Assembly: GCA_963744145.1 (NCBI GenBank)
Contig: CAVUSO010000001.1
Span: forward strand, 4,416,001 to 4,480,000
Direction of reading: 5' to 3'
DNA from: an uncultured cyanobacterium
GTDB lineage: Bacteria; Cyanobacteriota; Cyanobacteriia; Cyanobacteriales; CAWUOF01
Length of the DNA stretch: 64,000 nucleotides
The position numbers and the translations under genes were made by a program. Positions 19,114 through 63,362 of the stretch are shown here, in pieces (within the stretch, counting starts at the first letter, position 1; every line of letters begins with the position of its first letter). Below the pieces are notes generated by a model, which searched no databases, was not told where the DNA came from, and worked only from the letters and a program-made list of their open reading frames with translations.

Positions 19114-19220
19114 CAGCCATTTACGAATCAAATAGATTAACTATAAAATACAAATAATATCTTTAACCCAACTCTATTAATAAAGCAATAAGAGAACCTT
19201 AGAACTGCATTAAATCAATT

Positions 19221-19826: not shown

Positions 19827-19832
19827 CTTTTT

Positions 19833-39503: not shown

Positions 39504-39574
39504 TGCTTCACTAATTAAGCATTTGTGATTAATAAAATTTACCTCGGCTTCCTGACTATTAGAGGATCTGCTCT

Positions 39575-41962: not shown

Positions 41963-42113
41963 CATCATTGGGGTAAGCAATGCGATCGCGCTTCGGTTAA
42001 TATTCATCTTAACTTCATTCTCTAGTCATAAGTTTGTCAAACCTCTCTGATACTATCAAAATATTGCTGGCTAGGCAATGGTTACATAGTTTGATTGTTA
42101 AGGATACTCCTCT

Positions 42114-42145
42114 AACCTCTCAGGGAAACTGAGAGGTTTTTTTTT
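42114..42145 (+). terminator. Rho-independent terminator
   Basis: AACCTCTCAG-loop-CTGAGAGGTT followed by a T-run. Confidence 0.8.
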
Positions 42146-42441
42146 CTTGAATAGAGGGCAAAGCATTTCGGCATATAAATGATTGTTTAAGCGTTTACCC
42201 TGAGCGTTCCCTGAGCGTAGTCGAAGGGCGTAGTCGAAGGGCAGAATAATATTACTGAAATGCTTTGCTCTCACACCTATGCAGCCAACCGATCAATTAT
42301 ATATCAATACTCAGTTACAGCCTATGACCTGTTTATGCAGTTCATCAAGGTGATCTGTGGGGCAGGGCGGGTTCATTAAGGTTATTTGTGTGTAGCAAAT
42401 TCATCGGTGAACCCGCCCCTACGAGCGATCGAAAAAACAGG

Positions 42442-43983: not shown

Positions 43984-44186
43984 ATTTTTCCTAGCTGTTT
44001 GACCTAACTAGCGGTAGGTTAATCTCTTATTCTTTAATAATTACGTTAGGAAATCAGTATAATTTATTACCAAATTTGATTGAGCCATTGAAAATGTAAT
44101 AATATTTTTATATTTAACTAACTGGTGCGAAAATTGCATGAGGGACTCTCCAGAGTCCCAGCAAAACTCTGTCCAGGGATTAACCT

Positions 44187-45530: not shown

Positions 45531-45856
45531 AATAATTCAATCTCAATCGACTAAAGATTATCTTAATCGAAGAATAACCTAATCAAATAGTTTGCCATGA
45601 ATCAGCAGCAGGAACAAGTGGGTCAAGTTGGGGACGATCGGATTGGTTCCAGTTTTCCACACTCCGATATTAAAATTGTTTTTAGGAAATTAAAGAATCT
45701 AGCTAATCTGCTCTAGACATATTGCTGCATCTTCGGTTATCATCAGCTCGCTCTTTCAGAAAACCATCAAAAAAGAGTACAATCGGTTCAAATTACATCC
45801 ATTTTCAATCAAGGAACTTATATGATTGAGTTGATTAGGTCAAGCAGAGTTAAGAT

Positions 45857-46966
45857 ATGCGGTGGTTTGTCTTATCAACTTCCGATATGGCTTCTTGGTT
45901 GCGTTTCCTCAAGCGGATAAACTGGCAAGCTTTTCAACAGCGTCGAGTTGGCACAATCTTGATTTTAGGTATTTTCCTAAGTATTATTTCTCTGAGTTTA
46001 TTATTGTTTCAGGCATTGTTTCCATCTGCTTCCTCCCTTCCTCAACCGCTTCTTCCGGTTGTGCGAATCAGCTCTCAATCTCTAGAACCAATCACACCCA
46101 TATTTTCCTATCCTGGACTTGATTCTCGCAAAGTAGCTCTGGGAGAAAAACTATTTCACGAAACTCAACTGTCACACAACAACCAGATATCCTGTGCTAG
46201 TTGTCACAACTTACAGCAAGGTGGTACGGATCAACTACCCCATTCTGTAGGAATCAATGGACAGATATCCTTCATGAATTCTCCCACGGTATTTAATTCT
46301 GGATTGAATTTTAAACAATTTTGGGATGGAAGAGCAGCCACCCTAGAAAAACAGATTGACGGACCAGTGTTAAATCCCCAAGAAATGGGTTCAACCTGGA
46401 CTGAGGTGATCGCCAAATTACGAACAGATCAGCAATATAATCAGTCTTTTCGACAAATATATAACAGTGATATTCAGCCCGAAATGATCAAAGATGCGAT
46501 CGCAACTTTTGAACGATCTTTGAATACTCCTAACTCGAGGTTTGATCGTTTGCTGAAAGGTGAAAAGCTGGCAATTACAGCAGCAGAAAAAGCCGGTTAT
46601 GCGCTGTTTAAATCCTATGGTTGTGTTGCTTGTCACCAAGGTGTGAATATGGGTGGCAATATGTTTCAAAGTATGGGAGTAATGGCTGACTACTTTGCCA
46701 ATCGAGGACATATTAATCAAGCTGATTATGGTCGGTTTAACTTAACTAAAGACCCTCGCGATCGCTATGTTTTCAAAGTACCCAGTCTGCGTAATATTGC
46801 GCTTACTGCTCCCTATTTCCATGATGGTCAAATCCAGACTTTACCAGAAGCAGTGAAGCTGATGGGGAAATATCAACTCGGAATTGATATTCCATCCCAA
46901 GATGTAGTTTTGATCTGGCAATTTCTTCAAACCCTGACTGGAGAGTATCGAGGAGAAAGCTTATGA
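45857..46966 (+). CDS. Di-heme cytochrome c peroxidase (CcpA/MauG family)
   Basis: Two CXXCH motifs (CASCH, CVACH), QFWDGRA, FKVPSLRN, PYFHDG; N-terminal TM segment. Confidence 0.9.
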   Translation: MRWFVLSTSDMASWLRFLKRINWQAFQQRRVGTILILGIFLSIISLSLLLFQALFPSASSLPQPLLPVVRISSQSLEPITPIFSYPGLDSRKVALGEKLFHETQLSHNNQISCASCHNLQQGGTDQLPHSVGINGQISFMNSPTVFNSGLNFKQFWDGRAATLEKQIDGPVLNPQEMGSTWTEVIAKLRTDQQYNQSFRQIYNSDIQPEMIKDAIATFERSLNTPNSRFDRLLKGEKLAITAAEKAGYALFKSYGCVACHQGVNMGGNMFQSMGVMADYFANRGHINQADYGRFNLTKDPRDRYVFKVPSLRNIALTAPYFHDGQIQTLPEAVKLMGKYQLGIDIPSQDVVLIWQFLQTLTGEYRGESL

Positions 46967-48750
46967 CCCCAAATCGAGTCCGCACTATTTTAATCAGCAT
47001 CATCATCTCGTTGCTATTGACTGGATTATTTATTAAAACTCAGGCGCTAAATCTTGATCATCATTATCAACTACTGGTACAAATTCGTCAGATCAAACAA
47101 GCAGACGCGATCGTGAATTCGGATCTACTGAAAAGTCGGTTTATGTTAGACTCTAACTATGATAATTTGGTAGCAGACTGGCAAATATTCCAGCAAAATT
47201 TGCAGATTCTCTCGATATTTTTGCAGACTTCTAGCGTGGGAAAATTGCCGACTGTGCAACAATATTGGCAAGCAATTGTGAAAGTGAGCGAGGAAAAAGA
47301 AACTGCCATTGAACGATTTAAATCTCAAAATGCGGTATTACAAAACTCTGAATACTACTTTCCCACCATCAGCTATAAACTACTAAATAAATGGTCAGAT
47401 TATTCCCAGGATGTTCCAGTTAAAGCGACATTAGAACAACTTATCCATGATTTTTTGATCTATCAAATGAATGCAAGACAAGATTTACAATCTTCTGTTG
47501 TAGCTGATTTAGATAGATTGCAATTATTGGCACCACAGTTACCATTAGAATCACGTCTAGAGCTAAATAATCTGATCGCTCATGGTAGAAAAATGCTGAG
47601 TCTGAAATCAGAAATGACTGAACACTTATCCTACCTATTAGCGATACCTACACCCCAAACTATAGATGCTCTAGCTTTGGATTACGAAACACATCATAAA
47701 CAGCAATTGCAGGAATCAAATGTCTATCGACTAATTCTGTATTTAGCGTTGATCGGTTTATTGTTAATTACTGTTCGCTCGCGAATTTATTGGCAAACCC
47801 AAATTCTCAAAACAACTAATATTCAGTTAGAACAACAGGTAAATGAGCGGACTCGGATATTACAAAAAACCCTCTATGATTTACAGCGATCGCAAGCACA
47901 ATTGATTCAAGCTGAGAAAATGTCTAGTCTAGGACAACTGGTAGCAGGGATTGCCCATGAAGTTAATAATCCAATTAATTTTATCCATGCTAATATTCTA
48001 CCAGCCGAAACCTATATCCATGAATTAATTCAAATTATCAATCTATATCAACAACACTATCCCACTCTACATCCAGAGATTCAAACCTATACGGAAAGTA
48101 TCGATCTAGAATTTGTCAAAAAAGATTTTTTACATTTGATTACCTCAATGAAAATTGGTTCTGAACGGATTCGTGATTTGGTCATCTCCCTGCGAAATTT
48201 TTCGCGTTTAGATGAATCAGACAAGAAACAGGTGAACATCCATGATGGATTAAATAGCACATTATTAATATTACAGCATCGGCTTCAAAATCTTTCTAGT
48301 CATGGTGAAATTAAAATAATTAAACAATATGGTGATCTGCCATTAATTACTTGTTATGCTGGTTTACTCAATCAAGTTTTTATGAATCTCTTAGCCAATG
48401 CGATCGATGCTCTAGAGCAAAAAATGAGTACAGACATCTCCCCGAGTATTACCCCAACAATTTGGATTCAAACTAAAGCTTCTGATCAGGGGGTTACGAT
48501 CACGATCGCTGATAATGGTTCAGGAATTCCCGAATCAGTCAAAGCCGAAATTTTTAATCCATTTTTCACTACTAAATCCGTTGGTAAGGGTACAGGTCTG
48601 GGGTTAGCATTATCTTACCAGATTATTGTTGAAAAACATGGGGGGAAAATAGAATGTTTGAGTTCTGCTTTTCAACGAACTGAATTTCATATCTATCTTC
48701 CTTTCCCAGTTCTACATAATTTAGAAGTTACTACAAACCTTTCTCTTTGA
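46963..48750 (+). CDS. Membrane histidine kinase with all-helical (DAHL-like) extracytoplasmic domain
   Basis: TM-sensor-TM; NYDNLV and [18 protein letters not shown]; HATPase. ATGA overlap with the peroxidase gene. Confidence 0.85.
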
Positions 48751-50530
48751 TCATCCCCATTAACTTGTGTTTACGAGCATGAGTTTGCATCATTTTTGTC
48801 CGGTAAGCTGACCACTCCGATGTGCGTTCCGCTCGTTTATAAGCATCTCTTGCTAGGGTGAGGTACTCTACCGCTAAACCATATACTTCTGATTTACCTT
48901 GATCCATAATTGCACCAGCTTGACGGATCGCATGAGTAATCACCCAATCCGGACGCACACCCACAGCTTTTTTCATTACCCGTCGCAGTAGAGCTTCGTG
49001 ATAAGAACCAATATTAGTAACAGCAGCGATCGCGTCATCAATTAAATCCTCATGGAGAAAAATCTCTACCTTTACCTCATGAGTTCCCCAACCAGAATGA
49101 GTCCGAAGATTAGCTAATAGTTCTGCTTTTACCTCCTCCCAATTTTCTCCTGCTAGATGTTCAGCTAAACGATAGTCTCCAAATTCAGGGTGAGCTTTAA
49201 ATGCTTGAATGCGAGCTTTTAGTGCTACGGGGAGATTGTCTAACCCTTCTGCGAGATTGCTGGTCCAAATTGCTAACTCGTACTCACAATGACCCTTTAA
49301 AGTCAGTCCCATTTGGGCAATCTCTAGTGCTTGACTCAATGCGTTCTGTTCTTGTAAAGTTTTAGCTAGAGCCAACGCTTCTTCCCTTAACTGCATTTGG
49401 GTTTTAGCCGCAGCGATCGCTTCTTCGATTCGACCTAAACCAGCTAACATTGTCAGGTAATGTTCAGTTTGCCCTTCTGCTTGTGCTAAATAGAGGTATT
49501 CCTCATTGCGTTCTTGACGCTCTAGGATTTGTAATCTGATTAAGGCTAAATCATCAGCATAGTCTGGTGGTTCCCCAGTCCATGCTCCCTGTGAGGTAAT
49601 TTCTCCCTGTAAAACGCGCTGGAGCTGTGGATCATCCCAACCTTGTCGCAATGCTCCTAAACTCATCTCAAAATTAGCATCCCATTCATCTTGCCATTGC
49701 TCTAAGTTTTCCTGGAGCTGGGTTTTTTCTTGGGGAGTAAGTTCAGCACTCAAAATCGCTGCTGTCCAAGCATCATTTAGAAGTCCGACTACTTGGTCAT
49801 TATCTAAACCATAGTCATCAACATCATCCCACTCTTGCACACAGGTAGCAGTAATAGCTGTGAGAATCGCGATCGCACTATTACCATCTCCCTGTTCAGT
49901 AAAATCTTCTGCTTGCTGAATCACATCAATGAGATACTCAACCACAGGATCATCTTCAGACCCATCTTCAAGCTCACGCACAGCATCTCGTAAAATCTGT
50001 TTTACCTGTCGCTTAATCGGAGTTGGATCTATATTAGTACGGCGTTGAGATTTAGCAGATTGCCGTTCTGGGGATTTAGGGGGGTTAGTAATTAGAATAA
50101 TGTGACGCTCAATCAGATCAATTAGTTCGGGTTGGTCTGATACCAATTCTTGTACTAATCTTTGAGTTTGAAGGAAATCGAGCCGATCTAAAAGATTTTC
50201 TAGGGTGGGACGTTGTTCAATTTTTTCTGGCTCATGCAAACAAACTAGCAGCGTAGCGATCGCGTGTTTGCACCATCCCTCATAGCTATATTCACAGGTA
50301 CAAGTAGCGTTTGTGATCCCCTTCCCATCAAAACTAAGACTCACCCAATAGGGAAGAGGTTCACTACCTTCTACTTCTGCGAACAGGGTATTGCTCCGCT
50401 GGGTCAGACTAAGTACAGCACCCTGACGATAGTAGGTTTCGCCCCGCTCGAAAGATTTAGTGGTAGCATAGCTGCGGATGATTGCTTCGCTTAGATGGGG
50501 TATAGGCATATTACGATCAGAAGTTGTCAA
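48731..50530 (-). CDS. SWIM zinc-finger protein
   Basis: RGETYY, CTC-x7-CKH. Confidence 0.8.
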   Translation of the reverse strand: MTTSDRNMPIPHLSEAIIRSYATTKSFERGETYYRQGAVLSLTQRSNTLFAEVEGSEPLPYWVSLSFDGKGITNATCTCEYSYEGWCKHAIATLLVCLHEPEKIEQRPTLENLLDRLDFLQTQRLVQELVSDQPELIDLIERHIILITNPPKSPERQSAKSQRRTNIDPTPIKRQVKQILRDAVRELEDGSEDDPVVEYLIDVIQQAEDFTEQGDGNSAIAILTAITATCVQEWDDVDDYGLDNDQVVGLLNDAWTAAILSAELTPQEKTQLQENLEQWQDEWDANFEMSLGALRQGWDDPQLQRVLQGEITSQGAWTGEPPDYADDLALIRLQILERQERNEEYLYLAQAEGQTEHYLTMLAGLGRIEEAIAAAKTQMQLREEALALAKTLQEQNALSQALEIAQMGLTLKGHCEYELAIWTSNLAEGLDNLPVALKARIQAFKAHPEFGDYRLAEHLAGENWEEVKAELLANLRTHSGWGTHEVKVEIFLHEDLIDDAIAAVTNIGSYHEALLRRVMKKAVGVRPDWVITHAIRQAGAIMDQGKSEVYGLAVEYLTLARDAYKRAERTSEWSAYRTKMMQTHARKHKLMGMIKEKGL

Positions 50531-50617
50531 AATTTAATCTTGCTAAAAATAGTACCATTTAGAACCCGGAACTACGATGAGAAAATCTGGACTGCTTTTG
50601 GCGATCAGTTTTTATAC

Positions 50618-50740
50618 TAGACCTCTTGCAAAAGTCATGTTGATCAATTTACTGGACAGGCAAGATGCCTGTCCCACAACCAAAAAAACTCTTGTGGGAC
50701 AGGCATCTTGCCTGTCCTAGTTATTTTTGCAAGAAATCTA
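50618..50740. mobile_element. MITE-like element (123 bp)
   Basis: TIR TAGACCTCTTGCAAAA / TTTTGCAAGAAATCTA with internal REP palindromes; a 33/34 copy of the left end lies at 31851-31884. Confidence 0.7.
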
Positions 50741-50848
50741 CTATAGAAGAAGAATTGGATAAAATATCCTCTATTCAAAAGTAGCTGCGTAAGCCAGAGC
50801 CAAGTGGCGAAAAAATCAGAACAGTAACCAATTTCCGGGAGCAAAGCC

Positions 50849-51556
50849 ATGACATTTGACATTAATCAACTCAATAATTTGGAATATGATGATGCTGAAC
50901 CTTTACTAGAAGATTATATAAATGATGTAATTGAGGAATTTGCCCAATCACCAGAAGGAAAGGCATATGCTCAAGAATATCCAGAATTTGGTGGATGGAT
51001 CAACTCTTTCATAGAAATGTCATACAACTATGAGGGATTCACATTACCAAAGATGACTAAGGCTGATGCACAAGTGGTCATGGAATATCTTTTGCCTCGC
51101 AAATTGACATTGCTTGATCGATCGGAAGCGGAAGATGCTATTCCCGAACTGGTTGCTTTTTGGAATTTTTTAAAGCGGGAGTACAAATTTCGTAGTGCCG
51201 GCGCGATCGCCAAGTATCTGTCTAGTATCAAAGACAAGTTCACCGACTGGATGTTCGATCCGGCCAGAGGTGGTATAGCCAAAAACTTTTTTATGATTGG
51301 GATACAAGCTGGATTTGACATGACAACTCGGGAAGGGCTAAATGCTTTTCAAAAAGAGTATAATCAAAAACTCATTTCACCAAATTTCAATAGTTCTTTG
51401 TTTCAGCAGATAGAAATTATTCCAGACAATTCCCCAGCAGTACAACCTCCTTCGTCAAGTCGTAAATCGTCTCAGAAAAAGTTGCAGACTAAACCCAAAA
51501 CCAAAGGATTTGATTCACCAAAAAAAGGTAAGAAATCTCAAGACAAAAAAAGATAA
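50849..51556 (+). CDS. Hypothetical protein
   Basis: 235-aa ORF with GGAG RBS and a basic low-complexity tail. Confidence 0.75.
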   Translation: MTFDINQLNNLEYDDAEPLLEDYINDVIEEFAQSPEGKAYAQEYPEFGGWINSFIEMSYNYEGFTLPKMTKADAQVVMEYLLPRKLTLLDRSEAEDAIPELVAFWNFLKREYKFRSAGAIAKYLSSIKDKFTDWMFDPARGGIAKNFFMIGIQAGFDMTTREGLNAFQKEYNQKLISPNFNSSLFQQIEIIPDNSPAVQPPSSSRKSSQKKLQTKPKTKGFDSPKKGKKSQDKKR

Positions 51557-51559
51557 TCC

Positions 51560-52395
51560 TTGATCGCGAACAGAAAGGAAACATCAACAGAACCCTTCGA
51601 CAGGCTCAGAGCAAGTTTTGTCCAGATTTGTAGGGGCAAAGCATTTCGGCAGATCAATAATTGCTGAGAGCGAGAGAACTATAACCGAAATGCTTTGCCC
51701 AGCCATTGATGAATCAAATCGATCGCGGTTGAGAACGAACCGCAGAGAGGGTCCAAGAATCTGAAAGAGTGGTTAAGTGTAGGGGCGAAGCATTCGGGCG
51801 ATAATTGAACGCTTAAACGAGTAATATTAGACCCGAATGCTTCGCCCTTCTTCGCCGATATCCCCCAAAATATTCTTAACTGAACTGTATTGGATCTGTT
51901 GGTTGCATAAAGTGAGGGCAAAGCATTTCGGTCCTATTCTTCTGAGTTTAACCTATCATTTGTTCGCCGAAATGCTTTGCCCCTACAGAAATTGGCATAT
52001 ATATAGTTGATCTGTTGGCAATACGGTTCGGTTAAGTGTAGGGGCGTTCGCGCAAGCGTGCCGGAGGCATAGCATTCGGGCGATAATTGAACGCTTAAAC
52101 TTTACCCTGAGCGTAGTCGAAGGGGAGTAATATTAGACCCGAATGCTTCGCCCTTCTTCGCCGATATCCCCCAAAATATTCTTAACTGAACTGTATTGGG
52201 GGTGAAGCATTCGGGCGACAGTTGAACAATCAAACTTTACCCTGAGCCTTGCCCTGAGCCTTGCCCTGAGTGTAGTCGAAGGGGTAGTCGAAGGGGTAGT
52301 CGAAGGGGTAGTCGAAGGGCAGTAATATTAGATCCGAATGCTTCACCCTCTTCTGCGCCGAGATTCTCAAAAATATCCTTAACTGAACCATATTG
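51560..52395. repeat. Dense cluster of REP/MITE-like repeats with nested mini-insertions
   Basis: Several GGGCGAAGCATTCGGG...CCCGAATGCTTCGCCC units ending CTTAACTGAACTGTATTG; a complete unit with both ends at about 52019-52198. Confidence 0.85.
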
Positions 52396-52517
52396 AATTA
52401 TAGCAGGTTTTTAACCTTTCTGCTCTGGGAAGTATATCACTGTGCGATCGCTTTTTGGTTAGATGAGTTGGAGGTGCGATCGCACAATTTTTTCCATCAA
52501 TGCGGCCAGATTTCCTC

Positions 52518-54182
52518 TTACTTTAGATAGGATTTTGCCCAACTATATTGATTTGGATCTTTATTGAGAAGATACTCGACCACTTCTCTACGTTTATCTT
52601 TATCTTTGGTCATTCTCACAATTCTTTCAATTTCATCATCAGTATCATCAGCTCCACGTTCGATCGCCAATTTAAACCAATAATCACCATCCTCATATTT
52701 ACTGCGATCGTAACAAATTGCTCCCCTTAGAGTATAGGGTTGATGATTATCAGGTTGACATTCCATTGCTGATGCTGCACATTTCTCGGCTTGATCTAGG
52801 TGATTAAGATCCCGAAATGCTGCACCTCTAGTTACCCAAAGAGCTGATTTGAGATCAGGTTCTTGTAATTTGTTCCAATTCAAATTTTCGGTAACTTTTA
52901 GAGCTTGTTCAGGATGATCCGCCTTACGCCAGTTACTACTTGCACTGGGTAAATTCCATCTGTTTCCAGTTCGTTGATATTCTTTTTCGTAAAATATTGC
53001 TTCTAATCTGTAGTAAGCGATCGCGATCTTTCCATGTCGAGAAAGACGACCTTCTTCCATTAATTGAATAACTTGTTTTGGGTCGAGTCGTTCTTCTCGC
53101 TCAAGTTTGAGCATAATTTCATAAAATGGGTCGATCGCTAATTGACCGAGAATCTGATATTTAGTTTTTAATGCTCGGAAGTGGATTTGTTTGGCTAGCT
53201 CTACTGTTTCCATCAGTCCCTCTTCTGACAACCACTGCATATCGTTCTCCGATATTTCAAAAATTGTAAGCCTCAGCAGAATTAGGTATAGAGGACTGGC
53301 AGGATCTGAGCTTTGATATTGAGTAGCTTTATATTTATCTTTAAGTTTCGCAAAGAATTTTCTGTCCTGATGTTCTTGATTAATTTCAATTAAATTGCTA
53401 AAATTTTGCTGTTCCAACCATTCACATTCCCTCCGATCTAGTTCTTCTTCTAAGTTGAGTTTCTTCAAAATAGGATATAGGGGACTAGAAATCGATGTAG
53501 CGGAGGTAGAATCAACCTGATATTTCGACTTTAGGTCTGAGAATTCAAGTTCTTTTTTCCTTTCATCCTCTTGTTGCCAATGAATTTTCAGCGTTTCTTC
53601 AAAATTGAATTCTAAAAGCCATTTAGTTTCTGAGTCCGATAATTCTGTTCTTGTATCAAGCTTTTTCAGAATTGAATAAAGAGGCTCTTCAGGAAACTGG
53701 TTTAAATGTTTGGTGGCTTTATATTTAACTTTTAATTTTGAGAAATTTAAGATATTTTGAATTAAAGTAATTGTGTCAATCAGCTCATAATTATTTAGCA
53801 GTTCAAGTTCTGAATCTTTAAGAGTACATCCAATATCTAGCTTCCCAAGTATTGAATAGACTGGGCTGGAGATGGGCAGCTCTAATTTTGGTGGAATGTG
53901 GTATTTAGTTCGTAGTTGCAGCAATTCAGTTTCTAGCCTTTGTTTGTCTTCTGCTTGGTATTGCTGTAAAAAAATAATCTCAACTGTTCGAGAAAGACGA
54001 TTCTCTGTTAACCATTCAAATTCTGGAGTTGTGACTTGAATACCCAGGTCTGCTTTTCTCAGGATCAGATATAGGAAACTATCAGAGCCATGACTATGCT
54101 GATCTACTTGATATTTCTTTTTAAGAGCAGCAAAGTGCCTTTTCTGTAGTTCTTTATTATCCATTCCTGATGTCATATTCAT
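52518..54182 (-). CDS. Hypothetical protein with six repeats of about 55-65 aa and C-terminal TPRs
   Basis: Recurrent F..LK.KY...LY.IL.KL...WL motif; TRGAAFRDL and TLRGAICYD TPR-like helices. Start uncertain (54188, 54182 or 54176). Confidence 0.75.
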   Translation of the reverse strand: MNMTSGMDNKELQKRHFAALKKKYQVDQHSHGSDSFLYLILRKADLGIQVTTPEFEWLTENRLSRTVEIIFLQQYQAEDKQRLETELLQLRTKYHIPPKLELPISSPVYSILGKLDIGCTLKDSELELLNNYELIDTITLIQNILNFSKLKVKYKATKHLNQFPEEPLYSILKKLDTRTELSDSETKWLLEFNFEETLKIHWQQEDERKKELEFSDLKSKYQVDSTSATSISSPLYPILKKLNLEEELDRRECEWLEQQNFSNLIEINQEHQDRKFFAKLKDKYKATQYQSSDPASPLYLILLRLTIFEISENDMQWLSEEGLMETVELAKQIHFRALKTKYQILGQLAIDPFYEIMLKLEREERLDPKQVIQLMEEGRLSRHGKIAIAYYRLEAIFYEKEYQRTGNRWNLPSASSNWRKADHPEQALKVTENLNWNKLQEPDLKSALWVTRGAAFRDLNHLDQAEKCAASAMECQPDNHQPYTLRGAICYDRSKYEDGDYWFKLAIERGADDTDDEIERIVRMTKDKDKRREVVEYLLNKDPNQYSWAKSYLK

Positions 54183-54192
54183 TGTCAAAATT

Positions 54193-54228
54193 GGTTCTAT
54201 TCAACTAATTTCCCTAGCGAGTAGGGAG
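54193..54228 (-). CRISPR. Degenerate terminal CRISPR repeat
   Basis: 34/36 match to the array repeat; 506 bp from the main array. Confidence 0.9.
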
Positions 54229-54302
54229 CGGCAATTTGAAATAGTAAAGGCGGAACTCAAATTAATAACTGCATCATAAGTTCTGGAAAAATTGTGCTAT
54301 TT

Positions 54303-54326
54303 AGCCCCTACTACTGGGCTTTTTTT
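54303..54326 (+). terminator. Rho-independent terminator inside the 506-bp insert
   Basis: AGCCC-loop-GGGCT followed by a T-run. Confidence 0.6.
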
Positions 54327-54734
54327 ATGCTTATTAATTGGTGGCAATTAAGTTAAGCCTGTTGTACAAGTTTGAGCTTTAAAAGGGTGTCTTTGGAGTT
54401 TTCCAAAAGTTGAAGAGTTAGAGCTTTTGTCGCTACGGAAGTCTCTGGTTTTTTAGTTTCTATTTGCGGAGTCGAGTGGGAGTCGAAGCCTTCTCGATTT
54501 CCGCCATTAATAGAAAACTTCGACTAGGTTTGTCTTAACTTATTTCTAAGTAAGCACTTTGTTGTAACCCTTCGGCTGGGGGAATGTTTTTATTCCTAGC
54601 GCGTCAGGATAGGGACACACTGCGGGTGGCGGGTGGTAGTAAGTGCCCCCCAAAGTTAGATTACTCGAAATCTACTCTTTTGTCAACAGTCACGTCTCAC
54701 ATTAATAGAAAACTTCCACTAATTTTGTCTTAAC

Positions 54735-57700
54735 GTTTCCATTCAACTAATTTCCCTAGCGAGTAGGGAGAGCAAGACTATCTGGAACAACGGATTAAGA
54801 TGATGCTTGTTTCCATTCAACTAATTTCCCTAGCGAGTAGGGAGTATAAAGGTGCCCCTGGCACCAAGCGCCTTTTGTGGTGCTAGTTTCCATTCAACTA
54901 ATTTCCCTAGCGAGTAGGGAGAATAACCCAATAACATTACGAACAGGACAAAACAAGTTTCCATTCAACTAATTTCCCTAGCGAGTAGGGAGCAGAAATC
55001 GGATGTAGAGAAAATATTCATAGACCCGGATGGTTTCCATTCAACTAATTTCCCTAGCGAGTAGGGAGCTTCTGTGTGATTGTCATTTATCTGGTGATCG
55101 CACTCGCGTTTCCATTCAACTAATTTCCCTAGCGAGTAGGGAGGAGAGCCACTTTTATTAGTAATATATTGAGAATAAGCTGTTTCCATTCAACTAATTT
55201 CCCTAGCGAGTAGGGAGATTGGAAAGCATCTTACAGAAGGCGGTGCAGCAGTAGTTTCCATTCAACTAATTTCCCTAGCGAGTAGGGAGACTACTTCCAA
55301 AGAATACGAATCCGGAAGGGTTCTCCTTGTTTCCATTCAACTAATTTCCCTAGCGAGTAGGGAGCACTGCTTACGGTCAGGGGGGAGATTTAATTCTCCC
55401 GGTTTCCATTCAACTAATTTCCCTAGCGAGTAGGGAGCCAGAATCACCGACCGCGAAAATATTGAAATCGGCGATAAGTTTCCATTCAACTAATTTCCCT
55501 AGCGAGTAGGGAGACGGATTATTCAACGGCGGTAGACGAAGAGCTTTTAGAAAGTTTCCATTCAACTAATTTCCCTAGCGAGTAGGGAGGTGCAACAACA
55601 ATCCGCACAGGTGCAACCAGCACCAACGTTTCCATTCAACTAATTTCCCTAGCGAGTAGGGAGTTGAAAAACGACCAGTTTATCGTTGTTGATTAAACTT
55701 GTTTCCATTCAACTAATTTCCCTAGCGAGTAGGGAGTCTAAAAACTGCTTATTACAACAGTTTTGTTTCAAAGTTTCCATTCAACTAATTTCCCTAGCGA
55801 GTAGGGAGTCTGCAATTACTGACAGTGGAATCGGTAAAAACTTGTTTCCATTCAACTAATTTCCCTAGCGAGTAGGGAGCTAAAAAGGTTAAATCGGCTC
55901 GAAAACAATTGGCCAAAGAGGTTTCCATTCAACTAATTTCCCTAGCGAGTAGGGAGTCAATTTGTTACGTCGCATTAGCGTCAGAGCATTTATCCGTTTC
56001 CATTCAACTAATTTCCCTAGCGAGTAGGGAGACTTTTCTGTCCAAAAGGCTTGCGTCAGCCTTAATTAAAAGTTTCCATTCAACTAATTTCCCTAGCGAG
56101 TAGGGAGTGTAGAAAATTTTGGGACTACCCCATGAGCCAAGTTTCCATTCAACTAATTTCCCTAGCGAGTAGGGAGTAGTTGGTGATTTTGGTTTAACTC
56201 CGACTAGATTAATAGTCGTTTCCATTCAACTAATTTCCCTAGCGAGTAGGGAGCCGTCTTTATGGCGGTCTGACTCAGGCGTTTATCCGGACGTTTCCAT
56301 TCAACTAATTTCCCTAGCGAGTAGGGAGTCCAGCTATAGTTTCGATTCTAGATTGGCCCTCACCCAGGTTTCCATTCAACTAATTTCCCTAGCGAGTAGG
56401 GAGGATCGCAAAAACTGTTAATCCGGTTTCCGTTCGGGATGGTTTCCATTCAACTAATTTCCCTAGCGAGTAGGGAGTTATCTCAAGGATTATATTGATC
56501 GGATCATTAAGAAGTTTCCATTCAACTAATTTCCCTAGCGAGTAGGGAGGAAATTACTGAACCTAGATGCAGAGTTACAGGAGTTAGAGAGTTTCCATTC
56601 AACTAATTTCCCTAGCGAGTAGGGAGAATAGAGATGCCTATCCTCAAAGATAAAGATAACTATCGTTTCCATTCAACTAATTTCCCTAGCGAGTAGGGAG
56701 TACACAAACTTTAGAAGAATATATTAAGACTTGTAGTTTCCATTCAACTAATTTCCCTAGCGAGTAGGGAGTGGTAAATACAAAGGTGCAGATGAATTAG
56801 GATTTAAGTTTCCATTCAACTAATTTCCCTAGCGAGTAGGGAGTGCATTAACAGGTGCGTCAATGTTCTCTATGAATAAATCAAGTTTCCATTCAACTAA
56901 TTTCCCTAGCGAGTAGGGAGTCTAAGTCAGTTATTAAGTATCCTATCTAGAAATGCGTTTCCATTCAACTAATTTCCCTAGCGAGTAGGGAGCTGTAACC
57001 GCATTGATTATACGATACATAGTAATTCTACCGTTTCCATTCAACTAATTTCCCTAGCGAGTAGGGAGTTTGTTATGTCTATATCTAAGTCTTTCTCAAA
57101 TCAAAGTTTCCATTCAACTAATTTCCCTAGCGAGTAGGGAGTAGTCTTATGTTGTAATATCTGTTTACTATCTGTAGTTGTTTCCATTCAACTAATTTCC
57201 CTAGCGAGTAGGGAGCTCGGTATGGCTAAATGATTCAATTAATAATTCAGTGTTTCCATTCAACTAATTTCCCTAGCGAGTAGGGAGTTCGCAGCAAGCC
57301 CAATCCTGATTGGGATGAAGAAATGTTTCCATTCAACTAATTTCCCTAGCGAGTAGGGAGTCTTACTCATTATTACTTCCTCTTCTTATCTTTCTTTAGT
57401 TTCCATTCAACTAATTTCCCTAGCGAGTAGGGAGAATCATTACAGAAATTATATGATTCTTTAGATATTAGTTTCCATTCAACTAATTTCCCTAGCGAGT
57501 AGGGAGCTTAACTTCAAAACCACGGGAGATAGGATATCAAGAGTTTCCATTCAACTAATTTCCCTAGCGAGTAGGGAGTTAAGGTTGGAATACATTGTTG
57601 TAGATAATCTATAACTTGTTTCCATTCAACTAATTTCCCTAGCGAGTAGGGAGATTCTAAAAGATAATTTTAGGTATTTTACTGTAGATGTGTTTCCATT

Positions 57701-59344
57701 CAACTAATTTCCCTAGCGAGTAGGGAGACTCTAAAGCCATATTGCGATCGGCATATTTAAAATTGTTTCCATTCAACTAATTTCCCTAGCGAGTAGGGAG
57801 ATTATTACTGAATCTGCAACAGTCAATGTTACTAGCGTTTCCATTCAACTAATTTCCCTAGCGAGTAGGGAGCATGGAGTGGATTCTAGTCTGATACATA
57901 TCCAACCAGGTTTCCATTCAACTAATTTCCCTAGCGAGTAGGGAGTTGAATACCGTAGTCCCAAACATTTTACTGGCAAAAGTTTCCATTCAACTAATTT
58001 CCCTAGCGAGTAGGGAGTCCTACCGCCTATCCAGTTTTCTATAATACTTATTCTCGTTTCCATTCAACTAATTTCCCTAGCGAGTAGGGAGGTAAAAAGA
58101 TAGTAATGGAATGGGATGTAGAAAAAGATGTTTCCATTCAACTAATTTCCCTAGCGAGTAGGGAGAGATTTTGACATGACTAACTCGGCTGTAACTCCAG
58201 CACGTTTCCATTCAACTAATTTCCCTAGCGAGTAGGGAGCACAGGCTGGGATAATTGGAATAACCAGGGATATAATTAGTTTCCATTCAACTAATTTCCC
58301 TAGCGAGTAGGGAGGAATGGAAAGGCACAGTAGATAAAATTGAATATTATAAGTTTCCATTCAACTAATTTCCCTAGCGAGTAGGGAGACGGAGATTAGA
58401 ACCATGAAACCAATGAACTACGAAGTTTCCATTCAACTAATTTCCCTAGCGAGTAGGGAGAAGCCAACAAGGACAGTCAATCCCTCTTAGCGGATGAGTT
58501 TCCATTCAACTAATTTCCCTAGCGAGTAGGGAGTTCCAACAGTTATCAGAAAATGAATGGTATTTATATGTTTCCATTCAACTAATTTCCCTAGCGAGTA
58601 GGGAGAAGATTACTTTACTAACGATAGAAAAAACCATGAATAGTTTCCATTCAACTAATTTCCCTAGCGAGTAGGGAGATTTTACTCGACATCTGGGATC
58701 TGGCTAAGGATCGACAAGTTTCCATTCAACTAATTTCCCTAGCGAGTAGGGAGTAGAAGTAGATATTGATATTCAAACAGTATGGAATAGTTTCCATTCA
58801 ACTAATTTCCCTAGCGAGTAGGGAGCTAGGAAAAGAATACTGGATCATGCAAGAAAGAACAGAAGTTTCCATTCAACTAATTTCCCTAGCGAGTAGGGAG
58901 TAGTGGATATGGTTATACATCTTTAAGTTTGTTTACGTTTCCATTCAACTAATTTCCCTAGCGAGTAGGGAGTTACTCAATCTACATTACCTACTACTAC
59001 TGGTACTCAATGTTTCCATTCAACTAATTTCCCTAGCGAGTAGGGAGTACTACAGTAAAAGGATCAGTAGTAGCATCATCTTTTAAGTTTCCATTCAACT
59101 AATTTCCCTAGCGAGTAGGGAGTCTTTTAGATAATTGTGATAAAAGTAATTATAAAGAAGTAGTTTCCATTCAACTAATTTCCCTAGCGAGTAGGGAGTG
59201 TAGAAAATTGTAATGATGTAGAAGAAGATTTATTTGTTTCCATTCAACTAATTTCCCTAGCGAGTAGGGAGTATCGTTCTAAGTTTAAGAGGTACCACGA
59301 TTGAGATCGTTTCCATTCAACTAATTTCCCTAGCGAGTAGGGAG
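54735..59344 (-). CRISPR. CRISPR array, 63 repeats / 62 spacers by manual count
   Basis: 36-bp repeat CTCCCTACTCGCTAGGGAAATTAGTTGAATGGAAAC (minus strand); spacers about 33-41 bp. Orientation inferred from the leader next to cas2 and the degenerate distal repeat. Confidence 0.98.
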
Positions 59345-59544
59345 AGCTTCTATTAAAACCCATATCCCGTCTAATGTCTAGAGGCAGTTTGCGAGGCTCA
59401 CCATTTTTGCTCCTAAATTTTGCTTCTACCATGCTACTCAACACCTCTCAAATCCTTATGCAGTAAGACATCGAAGCTCCCGACGGAAAAAGGTTGTTCT
59501 AGCCATTTTCGCTATCTTGCAGATTTCCCATGTTACAAAAAACC
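59345..59544 (-). promoter_or_regulatory. CRISPR leader
   Basis: 200-bp region between the cas2 stop and the first repeat. Confidence 0.75.
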
Positions 59545-59826
59545 TTAAATGACTAAAGACCCAGGAAACTGGGTGACAGGAAGCCCAACTCCCCAGATTT
59601 CCACTTGTCCCAGGGTATGTCTGGACAATGGGTAAAAACGCAGATTGTCTTCCGTTAAATTTACTCTTTCCTTAAGTCTCTGACACATTTCGTTATACTT
59701 AGTTGGTGTCAGCACAGACTCAAAGACACTGTACTGTACTCTTTTCCCGTAACCCTCTAATAAATCAGAGACTTTTTGACGACGCTTGTCGCTAGGAATA
59801 TCATAAACCACTACATAAAATAGCAT
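59545..59826 (-). CDS. cas2: CRISPR endoribonuclease Cas2
   Basis: YVVVYDI...YGKRVQYSVFE. Confidence 0.96.
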   Translation of the reverse strand: MLFYVVVYDIPSDKRRQKVSDLLEGYGKRVQYSVFESVLTPTKYNEMCQRLKERVNLTEDNLRFYPLSRHTLGQVEIWGVGLPVTQFPGSLVI

Positions 59827-60818
59827 TAGCGAATCCGATAAGGTTCATAAACCTGAATAGGGTTGTAAACAAACTGCTTAAAAGCTTTCACTTGCTGAGT
59901 CAGCAAATCCCATTTTGGCTGTTTATCTCCTGAATTAGTCTGTACTTCTTCTTCCATCCTTTGCACAAAAGCTTTCAGATATTTAGAACGTCCCGTATCA
60001 TTCAGATAACATCCACCATCCCGATAAACAAAATCATCCAATACCGATAGCATCCGACGATTTGCTAAATATAATACCAGAGAATCCACTATGGGGGTGC
60101 GAAATTCTTCGATCAAATCAGAAGCTAAGGATGCGTGTTTTTCACTTGGTTGATGAAGACAGCCAAAATAAGGATCTAGTCCCTGAATCTCGATTAAACT
60201 AAGTAAGTGATTCCAGAGAATTTGATAACCAAAACTTAGCATCGCATTCACTGGATTTCCCGGAGGTTGTCGCGATCGCCCCGCAAAGACAAAATCTTCA
60301 TGATCAAAACATTCTCCCAACCCTGAGAAATATTGAACTGCACCAGCACCTTCAAAACCCATTAACTGCTGAATATTATCGGCATTTCCAGCTTTTTCAA
60401 GTAAATGGGCTAAACTCTGAATCGCCATATCCAGACTTGCTGAATGCTGACTACGTTGCTGACGCTTCAGGAAAACGCGACTATTTTTGAGCTTTCCCTG
60501 GACAATTTTTCTAGCAACAATTAAACGGTCAATTTCTGACAATTGCTGTTGATAGCGAGCCAGTTGTCGATAGCCACGTTCAATTGGAATAATCCTACCA
60601 TAACAGAATCCCATCCGTGACAAATAAGCGATCGCAATATTGCGCCATAAACAAGTTCTAATTAACTGGGTGGTAACTTGAGACTTGCCAAAAATCAGAA
60701 TTTGGTCCAATAATGGTAACTGCATCTTTCCCAGAATATTTTCGCCTTTTTTAATCACCACAGATTCATGGTCTTGGCAAACATAACAACCTTGTTGAGA
60801 AACATAAAGAGTCCGCAT
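59826..60818 (-). CDS. cas1: CRISPR integrase Cas1 (no RT fusion)
   Basis: TLYVSQQG, GFEGAGA, PVNAMLSFGY, LASDLIEEFR. Confidence 0.96.
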   Translation of the reverse strand: MRTLYVSQQGCYVCQDHESVVIKKGENILGKMQLPLLDQILIFGKSQVTTQLIRTCLWRNIAIAYLSRMGFCYGRIIPIERGYRQLARYQQQLSEIDRLIVARKIVQGKLKNSRVFLKRQQRSQHSASLDMAIQSLAHLLEKAGNADNIQQLMGFEGAGAVQYFSGLGECFDHEDFVFAGRSRQPPGNPVNAMLSFGYQILWNHLLSLIEIQGLDPYFGCLHQPSEKHASLASDLIEEFRTPIVDSLVLYLANRRMLSVLDDFVYRDGGCYLNDTGRSKYLKAFVQRMEEEVQTNSGDKQPKWDLLTQQVKAFKQFVYNPIQVYEPYRIR

Positions 60819-61087
60819 TATTTTTGGTCTAAATCATGGCGATCGCGACGATTAATATCAGATTGACCGCGTAAAATTTGCGCTTGCTGTTCAGCAGGAG
60901 TAAGATAAACAATAATCCGATCTGAAGCAGTAGCAGTAATGTAAGTAGCCACAGTAATCAGCAAGGTATTAATAATCACTGCGGCTAATCCCAAAGGAGC
61001 GATTAAGAGAATGATCAAAGTAACCGCACCATTGACAATAGAAAGAGCAACATTGCGAATAAAAGCAGCACGAGATGAGATATACAT
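60818..61087 (-). CDS. csx18: Csx18-like small membrane protein
   Basis: Two hydrophobic helices (LLIAPLGLAAVI); directly upstream of and coupled to cas1, as in cyanobacterial type III loci. Confidence 0.75.
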   Translation of the reverse strand: MYISSRAAFIRNVALSIVNGAVTLIILLIAPLGLAAVIINTLLITVATYITATASDRIIVYLTPAEQQAQILRGQSDINRRDRHDLDQK

Positions 61088-61148: not shown

Positions 61149-62627
61149 TTAGGGTTGGTAAGAAGTTATCGCTTCTTTTAATTCTTCATGTACTCGCGAC
61201 ATAAGACTCGCTTCCTTAAGAGATGTAAACTCTTGTTCAGATACAAAATTAAGACAGCCTAAAACCCTGGCTTCCCAATTTTTTTGATTTTCAGTTTTCC
61301 AAGCTTGAAAAACCGCTTTTTTTTCCAATCCTCGCAACCGATGAAATTGCTCATTGCGAATTTTGGCAGCCTCATCCCAAACAACCGCGATATGAGGATC
61401 TGATTGCCAATGAGGTTGAGCTTGTCGCAGTAATTCATAAAGAGAGGTACTATAAAGTCCCAATCTCGACTCTTTCTGAAACCGATTTCTCATTCCTTCT
61501 GATAAATTACTTAAGTAATTAGGAAACTGATTTTTAATCGATAATTTTAGACAAGGAGAACCTCGATGAATTTCAATGTGATTCGAGTAATAATGTTCTG
61601 CCCACTCAGCAATTAATCCTTCCACAGAGCGAAAACTATGAAATAAAGCTTCAACAGTATTACTTTGCTGAAACCTGATGACTGCTAAGTAAGCAGCTTC
61701 ATAAGCTGTCCACCACCATTGACGCGATCGCACTTTTGCTTCATTATCTAAAAGAGTAGCAAAATCCTGAAAGTTGCCAATATTCCACTGAATTGCCGCG
61801 TCTAGGAGTAACTGAATTCGTCTAATAAGTTGACCATTTTCATCATCAGAGTTAGCCGTCTTATAATAACCCCTAAGCAGACGACTCACTGCTTCATAAT
61901 TATACTGTCGTAATAAAGATAGTGCCTCTTGCTGTTTCCGATCCCAGAGATAATTTGTTCCCTGGAAAGGAGGATAATATTCAGAGGGAAAACCTTGACT
62001 ATTTGTTACCTCATCTTGTTTAAAATCATAAAACAGAGAATCTTCTCCAAAGCGACTCAATGCCGTTACCCGCGATGCTTCTGAAGACTGTCCGACACCC
62101 CCTTTCAAACACAACAAAATAGGAGTATCTTCAGAAATTTCTGAAGCAATTTGTCGCCAGACTTGTTTCCACCAACGAAACATTTCTTCAAAATTAGACG
62201 GATTATACCCCTCAGCACCTTGCAAAATAATCTGAGTAGGAATGTGATAGTTACTTTCAATCCACCGCTGAATAATTTGGGCTGAGTAGAGGGTGTCTTT
62301 ATCTCGCTGTTTAACTGTTTCTAACTGATCTGTTGCTACTAAATAAACTTTTTGTAATTGTTGATGCCGATCTTGTAACAATTTCCCTAAAATAATCGGC
62401 TTGAGAGCATTTTGGTACTCTTCCCAGTTTTCCAGTAAATATTTTGTGAGAAATCGAAAATCACTGTTCTCAAACCCTAATTCAGCTTGAACTAAGGCTT
62501 GTTCGCTGATACTATTACTATCGGGAGAGCGGTCATTTCCTAAATTGTACCATTGTTCAGAAGTAACAGCAAAAGCTAGATCCCGAGTACCAATGGTAGC
62601 AACTAAAATAGATTTTGGTGTAGCCAT
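61149..62627 (-). CDS. CARF-HEPN ancillary ribonuclease (Csx1/Csm6-like)
   Basis: N-terminal ILVATIGTRD, LCLKGG (CARF-like); RNEQFH = R-x4-H. Confidence 0.7.
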   Translation of the reverse strand: MATPKSILVATIGTRDLAFAVTSEQWYNLGNDRSPDSNSISEQALVQAELGFENSDFRFLTKYLLENWEEYQNALKPIILGKLLQDRHQQLQKVYLVATDQLETVKQRDKDTLYSAQIIQRWIESNYHIPTQIILQGAEGYNPSNFEEMFRWWKQVWRQIASEISEDTPILLCLKGGVGQSSEASRVTALSRFGEDSLFYDFKQDEVTNSQGFPSEYYPPFQGTNYLWDRKQQEALSLLRQYNYEAVSRLLRGYYKTANSDDENGQLIRRIQLLLDAAIQWNIGNFQDFATLLDNEAKVRSRQWWWTAYEAAYLAVIRFQQSNTVEALFHSFRSVEGLIAEWAEHYYSNHIEIHRGSPCLKLSIKNQFPNYLSNLSEGMRNRFQKESRLGLYSTSLYELLRQAQPHWQSDPHIAVVWDEAAKIRNEQFHRLRGLEKKAVFQAWKTENQKNWEARVLGCLNFVSEQEFTSLKEASLMSRVHEELKEAITSYQP

Positions 62628-62664: not shown

Positions 62665-63027
62665 CTAAATCAGAGGTAAATATTCAATACGGTCTTGATA
62701 TTCATCATCAAAAGATGCGCCAGCGATCGTGATTAATTCCTCAATAATCTGACCCATACTTTGGCCAAAATCAATGACTAAAATACCTGGAATATGATGA
62801 CCTTGTGATAAGTGATCTGCGAGATGTTTTGGCATTGATTTACGATTGTTAGTCACCAGAATAAATTGATTGACTTCACACCAAATCAGAATCTCTGGGT
62901 CTAATGTTCCTTTACCAGGAACATCCAGATCGCCAATAATCCTGACGATTAATTCTGGGTTGTGCCGCACCAATTGAGTCCGATAAATAGGAGAGATATG
63001 TTCATCTAGTAAATACTTAATGGTCAT
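62665..63027 (-). CDS. DUF5615 PIN-like toxin
   Basis: YLLDEHIS, DPEIL, ILVTNN, HIPGI. Confidence 0.8.
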   Translation of the reverse strand: MTIKYLLDEHISPIYRTQLVRHNPELIVRIIGDLDVPGKGTLDPEILIWCEVNQFILVTNNRKSMPKHLADHLSQGHHIPGILVIDFGQSMGQIIEELITIAGASFDDEYQDRIEYLPLI

Positions 63028-63032
63028 GCTCT

Positions 63033-63362
63033 CTATGATGGTTGCAAGTTTGCTGTTTCTGCTTTAATTTGACGGAATCTCAATCTAGCGGGTGAGGGAT
63101 TTTCCTCTTGCTCTGCGCGGATTTTGCGAGAAAATTCTAGCCAATCAGCAAGGTAAGCACTCACCTCAGATTTGTTGTGTAAATAGTACAAAATAGTCGC
63201 ATAAATTTGCTCTAAAGTGACAGTGTGAAATTGGGTGGCAATTTCTTCAGGAGTTTTACAACGATAGATGTATTCATAGAGAATACTTTCAATACCAATC
63301 CGAGTTCCTTGAAGGCGAATATCATCAGGAGCGAGAAAATTGAAGTAGTCTTCAATCTGCAT
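63033..63362 (-). CDS. DUF433 antitoxin
   Basis: IRLQGTRIGIESIL, TPEEIA, LEQIYATILYY. Confidence 0.85.
   Translation of the reverse strand: MQIEDYFNFLAPDDIRLQGTRIGIESILYEYIYRCKTPEEIATQFHTVTLEQIYATILYYLHNKSEVSAYLADWLEFSRKIRAEQEENPSPARLRFRQIKAETANLQPS

Follow-up and report, generated by a model that had tools for sequence, protein, structure and literature searches.

A conserved trailer module with a candidate self-directed guide–protospacer pair at the end of a cyanobacterial CRISPR3-type array

The window analysed here, a stretch of 64,000 nucleotides (nt) from an uncultured cyanobacterium (contig CAVUSO010000001.1, positions 4,416,001 to 4,480,000), contains a long CRISPR array whose trailer carries two near-identical, spacer-sized sequences, one of them directly abutting a repeat. 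The array occupies positions 54735-59345 on the minus strand and comprises 63 exact 36-nt repeats and 62 spacers of 33-41 nt. It is preceded by a leader (59346-59544) and by the minus-strand genes cas2 (59545-59826), cas1 (59826-60818), and csx18 (60818-61087). The Csx18 match reaches 96.6 bits in NCBIfam (cut-off 50), Cas1 and Cas2 are also above their cut-offs, and a Csm6-like CARF protein is encoded next to this block (61149-62627, minus strand), with a weak match below the cut-off. The position of these minus-strand genes at the high-coordinate end shows that the minus strand is the one on which the array is read, with the trailer at the low-coordinate end. The repeat at 54735-54770 (minus strand), which an earlier note made from the sequence of this window had called the last one, is therefore correctly named. 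A degenerate terminal repeat (54193-54228, minus strand) follows 506 nt past the last regular one, a few bases upstream of an open reading frame (ORF) at 52518-54188. Of its 36 positions, 34 agree with the array repeat, and the two that have changed belong to the would-be 5′ handle of a CRISPR RNA (crRNA). In a Planktothrix plasmid array with a matching repeat family, a similarly degenerate terminal repeat is located at normal spacing, which argues that the 506 nt take the place of the last spacer.

The repeat places the array in the neighbourhood of CRISPR3 on plasmid pSYSA of Synechocystis sp. PCC 6803, a type III-Bv system. The RNA of the window repeat forms a stem-loop from nt 2 to nt 18, followed by a single-stranded, AU-rich stretch (nt 19-36) that ends in GGAAAC and would give the 5′ handle. 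The Synechocystis repeat aligns with it at 27 of 36 positions and shares the fold, the single-stranded 3′ half, and a TGGAAAC end. The csx18-cas1-cas2 adaptation block stands beside the leader in the same order in both systems. The Synechocystis trailer differs and, read by eye, contains neither the module described below nor a pair of matching sequences. Maturation of CRISPR3 crRNAs, whose repeat is described with the same fold, has been attributed to RNase E and RNase J acting without Cas6, and yields mature crRNAs of 48 and 42 nt with a 5′ handle of 13-14 nt (PMC12464536). Subtraction of this handle from the 48-nt species leaves a guide of 34-35 nt, which equals the length of the identity found in the window, and the 35-40 nt over which the corresponding sequences match in different genomes likewise fit such a guide.

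Position 54734 is the base immediately before the first of the 63 repeats in coordinate order. Here, directly after the last regular repeat in the direction of reading, lies a sequence of 35 nt (54700-54734, minus strand; referred to below as the guide copy), the reverse complement of which is the predicted guide of the last crRNA. This crRNA is predicted to consist of the handle and a guide beginning GTTAAGACAAAA. The guide copy is spacer-sized, 35 nt being the length of 3 of the 62 array spacers. A second, protospacer-like site at 54505-54539 (the distal copy) carries the same base at 32 of the 35 positions, with a start-to-start distance of 195 nt. The exact abutment, the spacer length, and the three differences had been pointed out in the earlier note, and each of these statements holds. 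When up to 3 mismatches are allowed, the pair constitutes the sole two matching sites on both strands of the whole 64-kb window, in which no further copies of the guide sequence were found, and none of 100 dinucleotide shuffles yields a match to the pair sequence. The identity stops sharply on both sides, an ungapped comparison of the 80-nt flanks giving scattered matches only. The centre of the guide copy (54713-54724, TTCCACTAATTT) resembles repeat positions 7-19 (TTCAACTAATTT) at 11 of 12 positions, a score equalled or exceeded by 62 of 2000 shuffles, and the three differences between the copies lie in or beside this repeat-like stretch.

Related loci were collected by scanning a set of species-representative genomes, to which the window's own genome does not belong, with a degenerate repeat pattern; this gave 93 stretches. 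Homologues were then sought with blastn and an nhmmer profile in 97 sources (96 loci and the window). Positions 54343-54734 have homologues in only four of them, with an identity of about 70-75%: Oscillatoria sp. HE19RPO (L011), Microcoleus sp. K1-B1 (L032), Laspinema olomoucense D3b (L033, on the same contig as L076), and Laspinema sp. D2d (L056), whose module is identical to that of L. olomoucense. One copy starts directly at a repeat (guide position +1) in all four related loci, and the second copy is 201-228 nt away; the arrangement of repeat, guide, and target that the earlier note had proposed to look for elsewhere is thus present in each of them. The module is contiguous with the array in Microcoleus, as it is in the window, and lies about 1 kb off the main array in Oscillatoria and L. 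olomoucense, flanked by a repeat variant of its own and by additional degenerate repeats. In the latter two genomes, a TATAAT read directly in the sequence 7 nt upstream of the module's repeat indicates that the repeat-plus-guide unit has its own start. The downstream genes differ in all four contexts—a 556-amino-acid (aa) repeat protein in the window, a second cmr2-cmr3 operon in Oscillatoria, the remnant of a Tn3 transposase in L. olomoucense, and plus-strand genes in Microcoleus—which argues that the module belongs to the array end rather than to a neighbouring gene. The 506 nt that separate the degenerate repeat from the last regular one are thus a conserved trailer module and not an insertion accident. 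An accidental self-targeting spacer or the remnant of an inserted element predicts no conservation, whereas the pair is found in all four homologous modules, in four other genomes. The proposal, also contained in the earlier note, that a donor element had brought in both copies and that the repeat boundary is coincidental is not supported, since the copy adjoins the repeat exactly in all four related loci and the copies co-vary. Among 2,417 spacers and repeat flanks from the 97 sources, this array family alone has a repeat-abutting segment with a near-identical copy outside the array; all other matches represent duplicated spacers or cassettes inside arrays. When the ends of 100 arrays or repeat groups were scanned for analogous pairs, the window alone scored.

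A scan of the ORFs of at least 80-90 aa within the fetched flanks revealed cmr2, cmr3, cmr4, and cmr6 in the Oscillatoria, L. olomoucense, and Microcoleus loci, with a Cas6 match in none (37 ORFs scanned); the window's own effector genes lie beyond position 64000. Oscillatoria sp. HE19RPO has two separate Cmr gene sets, at 1-7515 and 16626-24354 of the fetched locus, which flank the array and the module. The module is situated upstream of the second set, and its repeat matches the window repeat at 27 of 36 positions, that of the main array at 35 of 36. The transposase remnant beside the L. olomoucense module (7441-7752 of that locus) is the C-terminal part of a Tn3-family enzyme.

Within the module, a sigma-70-type promoter is found on the minus strand at 54658-54686, with TTGACA at 54686-54681, a 17-nt spacer, and TAATCT at 54663-54658; its predicted start lies near 54651. 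It begins 13 nt after the guide copy and is retained with the same spacing in all four genomes, the other -10 forms being TAATAT, TAATAT, and TAGTCT. The earlier statement that the distal copy lies downstream of an internal promoter is borne out. A stricter automated scan returned no promoter-like sites in the window, yet called the homologous promoter in Oscillatoria. The promoter is predicted to drive a structured RNA of about 240 nt that contains the distal copy, in which case the trailer of these arrays would hold a previously unannotated, promoter-driven structured RNA. The 5′ part of this predicted small RNA (54540-54651, minus strand) contains a conserved block, which reads TAACCCTTNGGCTGGGGG on the plus strand, as well as a 5′ hairpin in which compensatory changes occur. 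Further downstream, a block referred to here as block 3 (54481-54494, minus strand) provides the 3′ arm of a hairpin, H3, by pairing with the distal half of the distal copy in the minus-sense RNA. Of the 14 pairs of H3, 13-14 are canonical in the minus sense in the four genomes, compared with 11-12 in the plus sense; each genome has two G-U pairs.

The site is followed in the minus-strand direction by a conserved hairpin (54420-54446), which on the plus strand precedes a T-run (54420-54462 in all) and is more stable in the plus sense in all four genomes (-8.5/-3.9, -12.3/-7.7, -7.5/-6.8, and -9.8/-4.5 kcal/mol, plus/minus). This hairpin is predicted to terminate plus-strand transcripts about 40 nt before the distal copy, and the minus-strand RNA probably ends at the same place; the homologous hairpin in Oscillatoria was called a plus-strand terminator by a prediction tool. 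Another intrinsic-terminator-like hairpin with a T-run (54303-54328, plus strand) is conserved in Microcoleus (4216-4231 of that locus) and absent in Oscillatoria and L. olomoucense, where the degenerate repeat adjoins the conserved module. The conserved left block of the module (54354-54419) includes a small hairpin, TTTGGA/TCCAAA. Rfam 15 has no match at gathering score in the window, and three sub-threshold matches (E 0.65-2.7) fall within 54100-54850. A coding role of the module was considered and rejected: the overlapping ORFs measure 20-49 aa only and none is conserved, and a 24-aa plus-strand ORF over the distal copy has, on our own reading, the conserved bases in a different frame in the window and in Oscillatoria.

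The two copies have not diverged independently. Within a genome they are 86-97% identical (32/35 in the window, 30/35 in Microcoleus, 38/40 and 38/39 in the other clade), while between the two clades, one consisting of the window and Microcoleus and the other of Oscillatoria and L. olomoucense, any copy agrees with any other at 27-29 of 38-40 positions (about 72%). The differences between the clades, including an indel of about 4 nt and several substitutions, are common to both copies. The same is true on a smaller scale of a 1-nt indel in Oscillatoria relative to L. olomoucense and of the substitutions A12G and A34G, which occur in both copies of Microcoleus relative to the window. A C/G difference between the copies at guide position 18 is kept in both the window and Microcoleus. 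The spacing of the copies varies (195, 202, 201, and 228 nt in the four genomes). Guide and target are thus conserved and co-varying among relatives, as is characteristic of crRNA-like modules, a pattern that would be explained by selection for a match between guide and site.

The positions at which guide and site differ are compatible with what is known of pairing in type III effectors. Numbered from the base beside the repeat, the differences lie at guide positions 12, 13, and 18 in the window and at 6, 12, 14, 15, and 18 in Microcoleus; in Oscillatoria there is one at position 24 together with a 1-nt bulge at 17/18, and in L. olomoucense a 1-nt bulge at 19. Positions 1-5, 7-11, and 19 onward are otherwise intact. 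In type III duplexes, every sixth position (+6, +12, +18, +24) is described as unpaired, mismatches there being without effect (PMC9704408), and the same unpaired positions are supported by work on the Cmr complex, in which cyclic oligoadenylate is made only when +1 to +7 are paired and mismatches in the third segment are tolerated (PMC8376896). The differences found here lie for the most part at every sixth position or in this tolerant middle segment. Of the nine substitution cells, six coincide with multiples of six, compared with 5/35 expected (binomial 5e-4), and an event-based recount of our own gives 5 of 9 (p=0.0045); this test of periodicity was devised after the data had been seen, on a small sample in which the window and Microcoleus share ancestry. 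The 8-nt plus-sense 3′ flank of the distal copy matches the anti-tag at 3, 1, 1, and 2 of 8 positions in the four genomes, the window having 3, and a target flank that barely matches the anti-tag means that the site would read as non-self.

The two copies may well represent a selected guide–protospacer pair in a Synechocystis-CRISPR3-type (III-Bv) array, silenced by orientation and insulation, although this reading is put forward tentatively. It suggests a hard-wired self-recognition circuit. The module would supply a built-in last crRNA, its guide being the reverse complement of 54700-54734, and the matching protospacer at 54505-54539 would lie within the gene of a small structured RNA, which has a strong minus-strand promoter of its own. 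Guide and site would be kept matched by selection over the length covered by a Cmr-bound guide, with differences tolerated where type III pairing allows them. Because the crRNA shares its sense with the RNA from the internal promoter, the only transcript that a type III effector could bind over 54505-54539 is a plus-strand one; the earlier note's caveat to this effect applies in full. Such a transcript would normally be halted about 40 nt before the site by the conserved terminator. The pair would therefore amount to a silent, transcription-dependent self-target, triggered by antisense or read-through RNA entering the trailer. A Cmr complex carrying this guide would bind the plus-strand read-through RNA and, the flank of the site not being complementary to the handle, would cleave it and switch on Cas10 signalling. 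The outcome might be destruction of the antisense RNA, regulation, or a dormancy signal. The anatomy of the module, its conservation, the co-variation of its copies, and the strand of its RNA structures were observed directly, and to these the reading adds that the crRNA is produced, that a plus-strand target RNA exists, and that recognition has an output, all of which we infer.

A more far-reaching version, quite improbable as it stands, takes the pair to be an innate tripwire within an adaptive system, i.e., a permanently carried and normally untranscribed self-protospacer with a dedicated crRNA. Plus-strand transcription past the terminator would then elicit Cas10 signalling and activate the CARF effector; possible triggers would be phage-induced read-through or antitermination, the outward promoter of a mobile element, or a stress-regulated promoter. 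An abundant small RNA of the same sense could act as a buffer by masking low levels of target. If true, dormancy or abortive infection could be elicited without a phage-specific spacer.

Several observations weigh against a guide–protospacer pair. The sole sequence evidence for RNA across 54505-54539, namely the promoter and H3, is for the minus sense, which is that of the crRNA, and no plus-strand promoter upstream of the site was recognised, neither convincingly by eye nor by a prediction tool. In the clade of the window and Microcoleus, identity within a genome (32/35, 30/35) is not above the identity between counterpart copies (31/35, 29/35), and the case for co-variation there consists of the shared substitutions, with p ~0.01-0.03 by our own estimate rather than from a tool. 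The sample as a whole amounts to four distinct sequences, the window and three others, in two clades. The periodicity of the differences was, as stated, a post hoc observation, and the 1-nt bulges of Oscillatoria and L. olomoucense would shift the pairing register unless they were absorbed at a flipped position. The guide copy could be partly derived from the repeat, or else its likeness to the repeat could be due to chance. Finally, the assignment of the window's system to type III-B is inferred from csx18, cas1, and cas2, the weak Csm6-like match, the repeat family, and the cmr genes of its relatives.

The alternative that survives best, although unlikely, is that the two same-sense copies are alike because both pair with a third sequence, either block 3 or an RNA encoded elsewhere, a scheme of guide mimicry or of a common partner. 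In a variant of this scheme, the crRNA could invade H3 in trans, without pairing at the end that activates Cas10. H3 speaks in its favour: in four genomes the distal half of the site pairs with block 3 at 13-14 of 14 positions, the G-U pairs fit the minus sense only, and one pair has changed on both sides (C-G to A-U), a change that is also present in the guide copy. A duplex of the guide copy with block 3 reaches -16 to -18 kcal/mol, compared with -19 to -24 for the resident copy. Co-variation nevertheless extends beyond H3, to guide position 2 (window vs Microcoleus) and, in the comparison of the clades, to the indel of about 4 nt at positions 13-17. No third copy was found on either strand of the 64-kb window or within about 10 kb in the Oscillatoria, L. 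olomoucense, and Microcoleus loci. The best local scores in this search were 13-16, those of shuffled sequences 11-14. In the three relatives the only find was a partial match of 20/24 in L. olomoucense (about 7712-7735), with a score of 16 that barely surpasses the maximum of 14 in 30 shuffles, and it lies inside the Tn3-transposase remnant.

A selected guide–protospacer pair also has to be set against concerted evolution without function, in which gene conversion or re-duplication homogenises the copies and the position beside the repeat is merely historical. In its favour, exchange of sequence between direct repeats 195-228 nt apart is possible in principle, the distinct sequences to judge by number only four, and within the clade of the window and Microcoleus the two copies of one genome are no more alike than their counterparts in the two genomes. 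The copies are embedded in non-homologous flanks, however, and changes shared by both copies come within 2 nt of one end and 5-6 nt of the other, which makes simple gene conversion a poor explanation. The difference at position 18 persists between positions that have changed together, the differences are enriched at positions that are unpaired in type III duplexes, one copy begins exactly at repeat +1 in all four related loci, and the stand-alone modules carry their own TATAAT. Concerted evolution is therefore considered rather unlikely.

It is very unlikely that the copies are two operators, or iterons, for one DNA-binding protein controlling the internal promoter or replication, a possibility raised in the earlier note. 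They do lie on either side of the promoter (about -83 to -49 and +112 to +146 relative to its predicted start), and WYL-domain proteins are encoded beside related arrays, one in Microcoleus (6245-7453 of that locus; weak Pfam matches just below the cut-off) and one on a plasmid of Nostoc PCC 7524. The latter is known from the annotation (L003, 8788-9996); no WYL protein is visible in the window. Iterons typically occur as several copies of about 17-22 bp with conserved spacing and a nearby gene for a Rep protein or regulator, whereas here there are just two sites of 35-40 bp. These co-vary over their full length, including internal indels of 1 nt and about 4 nt, and their spacing of 195, 202, 201, and 228 nt does not keep the helical phase. 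No dyad symmetry common to the four genomes was seen, and the visible part of the window revealed neither a rep gene nor a gene for a regulator.

BLAST searches with 54150-54800 gave no match in 50,697 phage records and, in 72,556 plasmids, the CRISPR repeat only (4 records), so neither a protospacer nor a donor element was found; for 36000-54200 there was no near match among plasmids. Transposon ends were rejected because the copies are direct rather than inverted, no target-site duplication was seen, and no similarity to the GGGG-starting end beside the L. olomoucense Tn3 remnant was evident by eye, and a protospacer-adjacent motif for a DNA-binding type I effector because the clades do not share the 3 nt that precede the site (TAA, ATA, GTC, GTC), which is a weak argument.

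Among the closest known counterparts are CreA of the CreTA modules, CreR, and the crRNA-like RNAs (crlRNAs) of types I, II, and V. Like the element described here, these are repeat-associated, non-immune guides that match their own locus and co-evolve with the matched site. They direct DNA-binding effectors to promoters by partial complementarity, whereas in the present module the match amounts to 86-97% over 35-40 nt and lies inside a transcribed RNA gene. In CreTA and CreR mini-arrays the repeats are one spacer apart, while the last regular repeat (54735) and the degenerate one (54193) are separated by 506 nt, with a spacer-sized guide on the side of the regular repeat only; the 32/35 match is found at +112 to +146 in a type III context rather than as a partial match on a promoter. 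The module would thus work like a built-in crRNA-like guide but lacks two defining features of the CreTA/CreR mini-arrays. Of the analogy with CreTA drawn in the earlier note, the maintenance of a guide match to a nearby site in evolution stands, and the RNA-targeting context, the near full-length match away from the promoter, and the shared sense of the two RNAs set the module apart.

A CreTA- or CreR-like function in the strict sense, i.e., repression of an adjacent toxic RNA or cas operon by a crRNA-like antitoxin or regulator, is for these reasons held to be highly improbable. In its favour, a near-consensus promoter is predicted to drive a structured non-coding RNA directly beside repeat and guide, and in Oscillatoria the second cmr2-cmr3 operon follows downstream of the module and is oriented like it. 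Besides the type III-B context, in which RNA is targeted, the common sense of guide and small RNA, and the long match far downstream of the promoter, this function is argued against by the small plus-strand ORF over the site, which reads conserved bases in different frames in the window and Oscillatoria, and by the different downstream genes in all four contexts.

Regulatory or safeguarding crRNA-like guides have been established for DNA-binding systems of types I-B, I-E, I-F1, and V-A: experimental evidence for CreR concerns I-B, I-E, and V-A (10.1101/2023.03.10.532045), and an I-F1 mini-array has been validated (PMC10120712). For type III, Shmakov et al., in a systematic survey of repeat-like elements, report mini-arrays near arrays in 10-14% of systems and describe them as without conserved positions or targets and likely to be degraded repeats (PMC10120712). 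In the passages searched, type III CRISPR comes up in other contexts only in two further papers, a review of 2025 and a crlRNA preprint of 2024. A literature search on type III crRNA-like guides, csx18/III-B in cyanobacteria, and III-Bv maturation retrieved no description of the module or the pair. Homing guides of CRISPR-associated transposons, such as cyanobacterial Cas12k elements, also consist of a special guide at the array edge, next to an atypical repeat, with a match to a nearby chromosomal site, and are kept apart from immune spacers (10.1101/2021.02.06.429022); the present case differs in its type III effector context and in the location of the matched site inside the module itself. 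No Tn7-like or Cas12k match was obtained among the cas-side ORFs scanned (38013-63998).

A guide–site pair that is conserved, co-varies, and seems to follow the pairing rules of type III would be a first candidate for a built-in guide directed at self in a CRISPR system that targets RNA and signals. Type III systems show conditional tolerance, in that a near-perfect or perfect target in the chromosome or a prophage is safe unless it is transcribed in the complementary sense. The known cases concern spacers acquired against prophages and not a conserved, co-evolving, built-in pair; by analogy, the situation of the pair in the window would be the same. The locus would lend itself to asking whether self-surveillance, regulation, or addiction is a task of built-in guides in type III systems, and how systems with such guides avoid autoimmunity.

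On a plasmid of Leptolyngbya sp. BL0902 (L002, 2457-3032), a csx18-cas1-cas2-array layout is followed by a degenerate terminal repeat 504 nt past the last regular one. The similarity of this interval to the 506 nt of the window was dismissed as a coincidence of length, since the interiors are dissimilar and no pair is present; the Leptolyngbya interval consists of unrelated sequence with a 79-aa ORF that has no Pfam match. Long cargo intervals between the last repeats may be a recurrent feature of this array family. Small ORFs also occur between degenerate or regular repeats inside arrays, at 9320-9595 in the Oscillatoria locus, at 8952-9227 in that of L. olomoucense, and at about 1540-1690 in a further locus (L052), where the cassette with the small ORF is tandemly duplicated. 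The 91-aa ORFs of the first two are without a Pfam match, and, translated by eye, they and the ORF of about 50 aa in L052 look hydrophobic.

In the window itself, the cas locus contains, between the Csm6-like gene and the next ORF, a gene pair on the minus strand within 62665-63362 that encodes DUF5615 (120 aa; 23.3 bits, cut-off 23.8) and DUF433 (109 aa) proteins and may be a small toxin-antitoxin-like pair. At the other end, the 556-aa ORF that starts a few bases past the degenerate repeat (52518-54188, minus strand) contains, as judged by eye, about seven internal copies of a motif of about 45 aa, LK.KY...SPLY.IL.KL...L...E..WL, followed by a C-terminal part of a different kind. Pfam and NCBIfam gave no match for this ORF, and a tblastn search of the fetched loci gave no relative. 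Beyond it, the region 51600-52400 is densely packed with perfect inverted repeats of 16 nt (GGGCAAAGCATTTCGG / CCGAAATGCTTTGCCC and variants) together with 75-nt direct repeats and looks like a cluster of small repetitive elements, in which four tandem copies of GTAGTCGAAGGG are found at 52272-52319.

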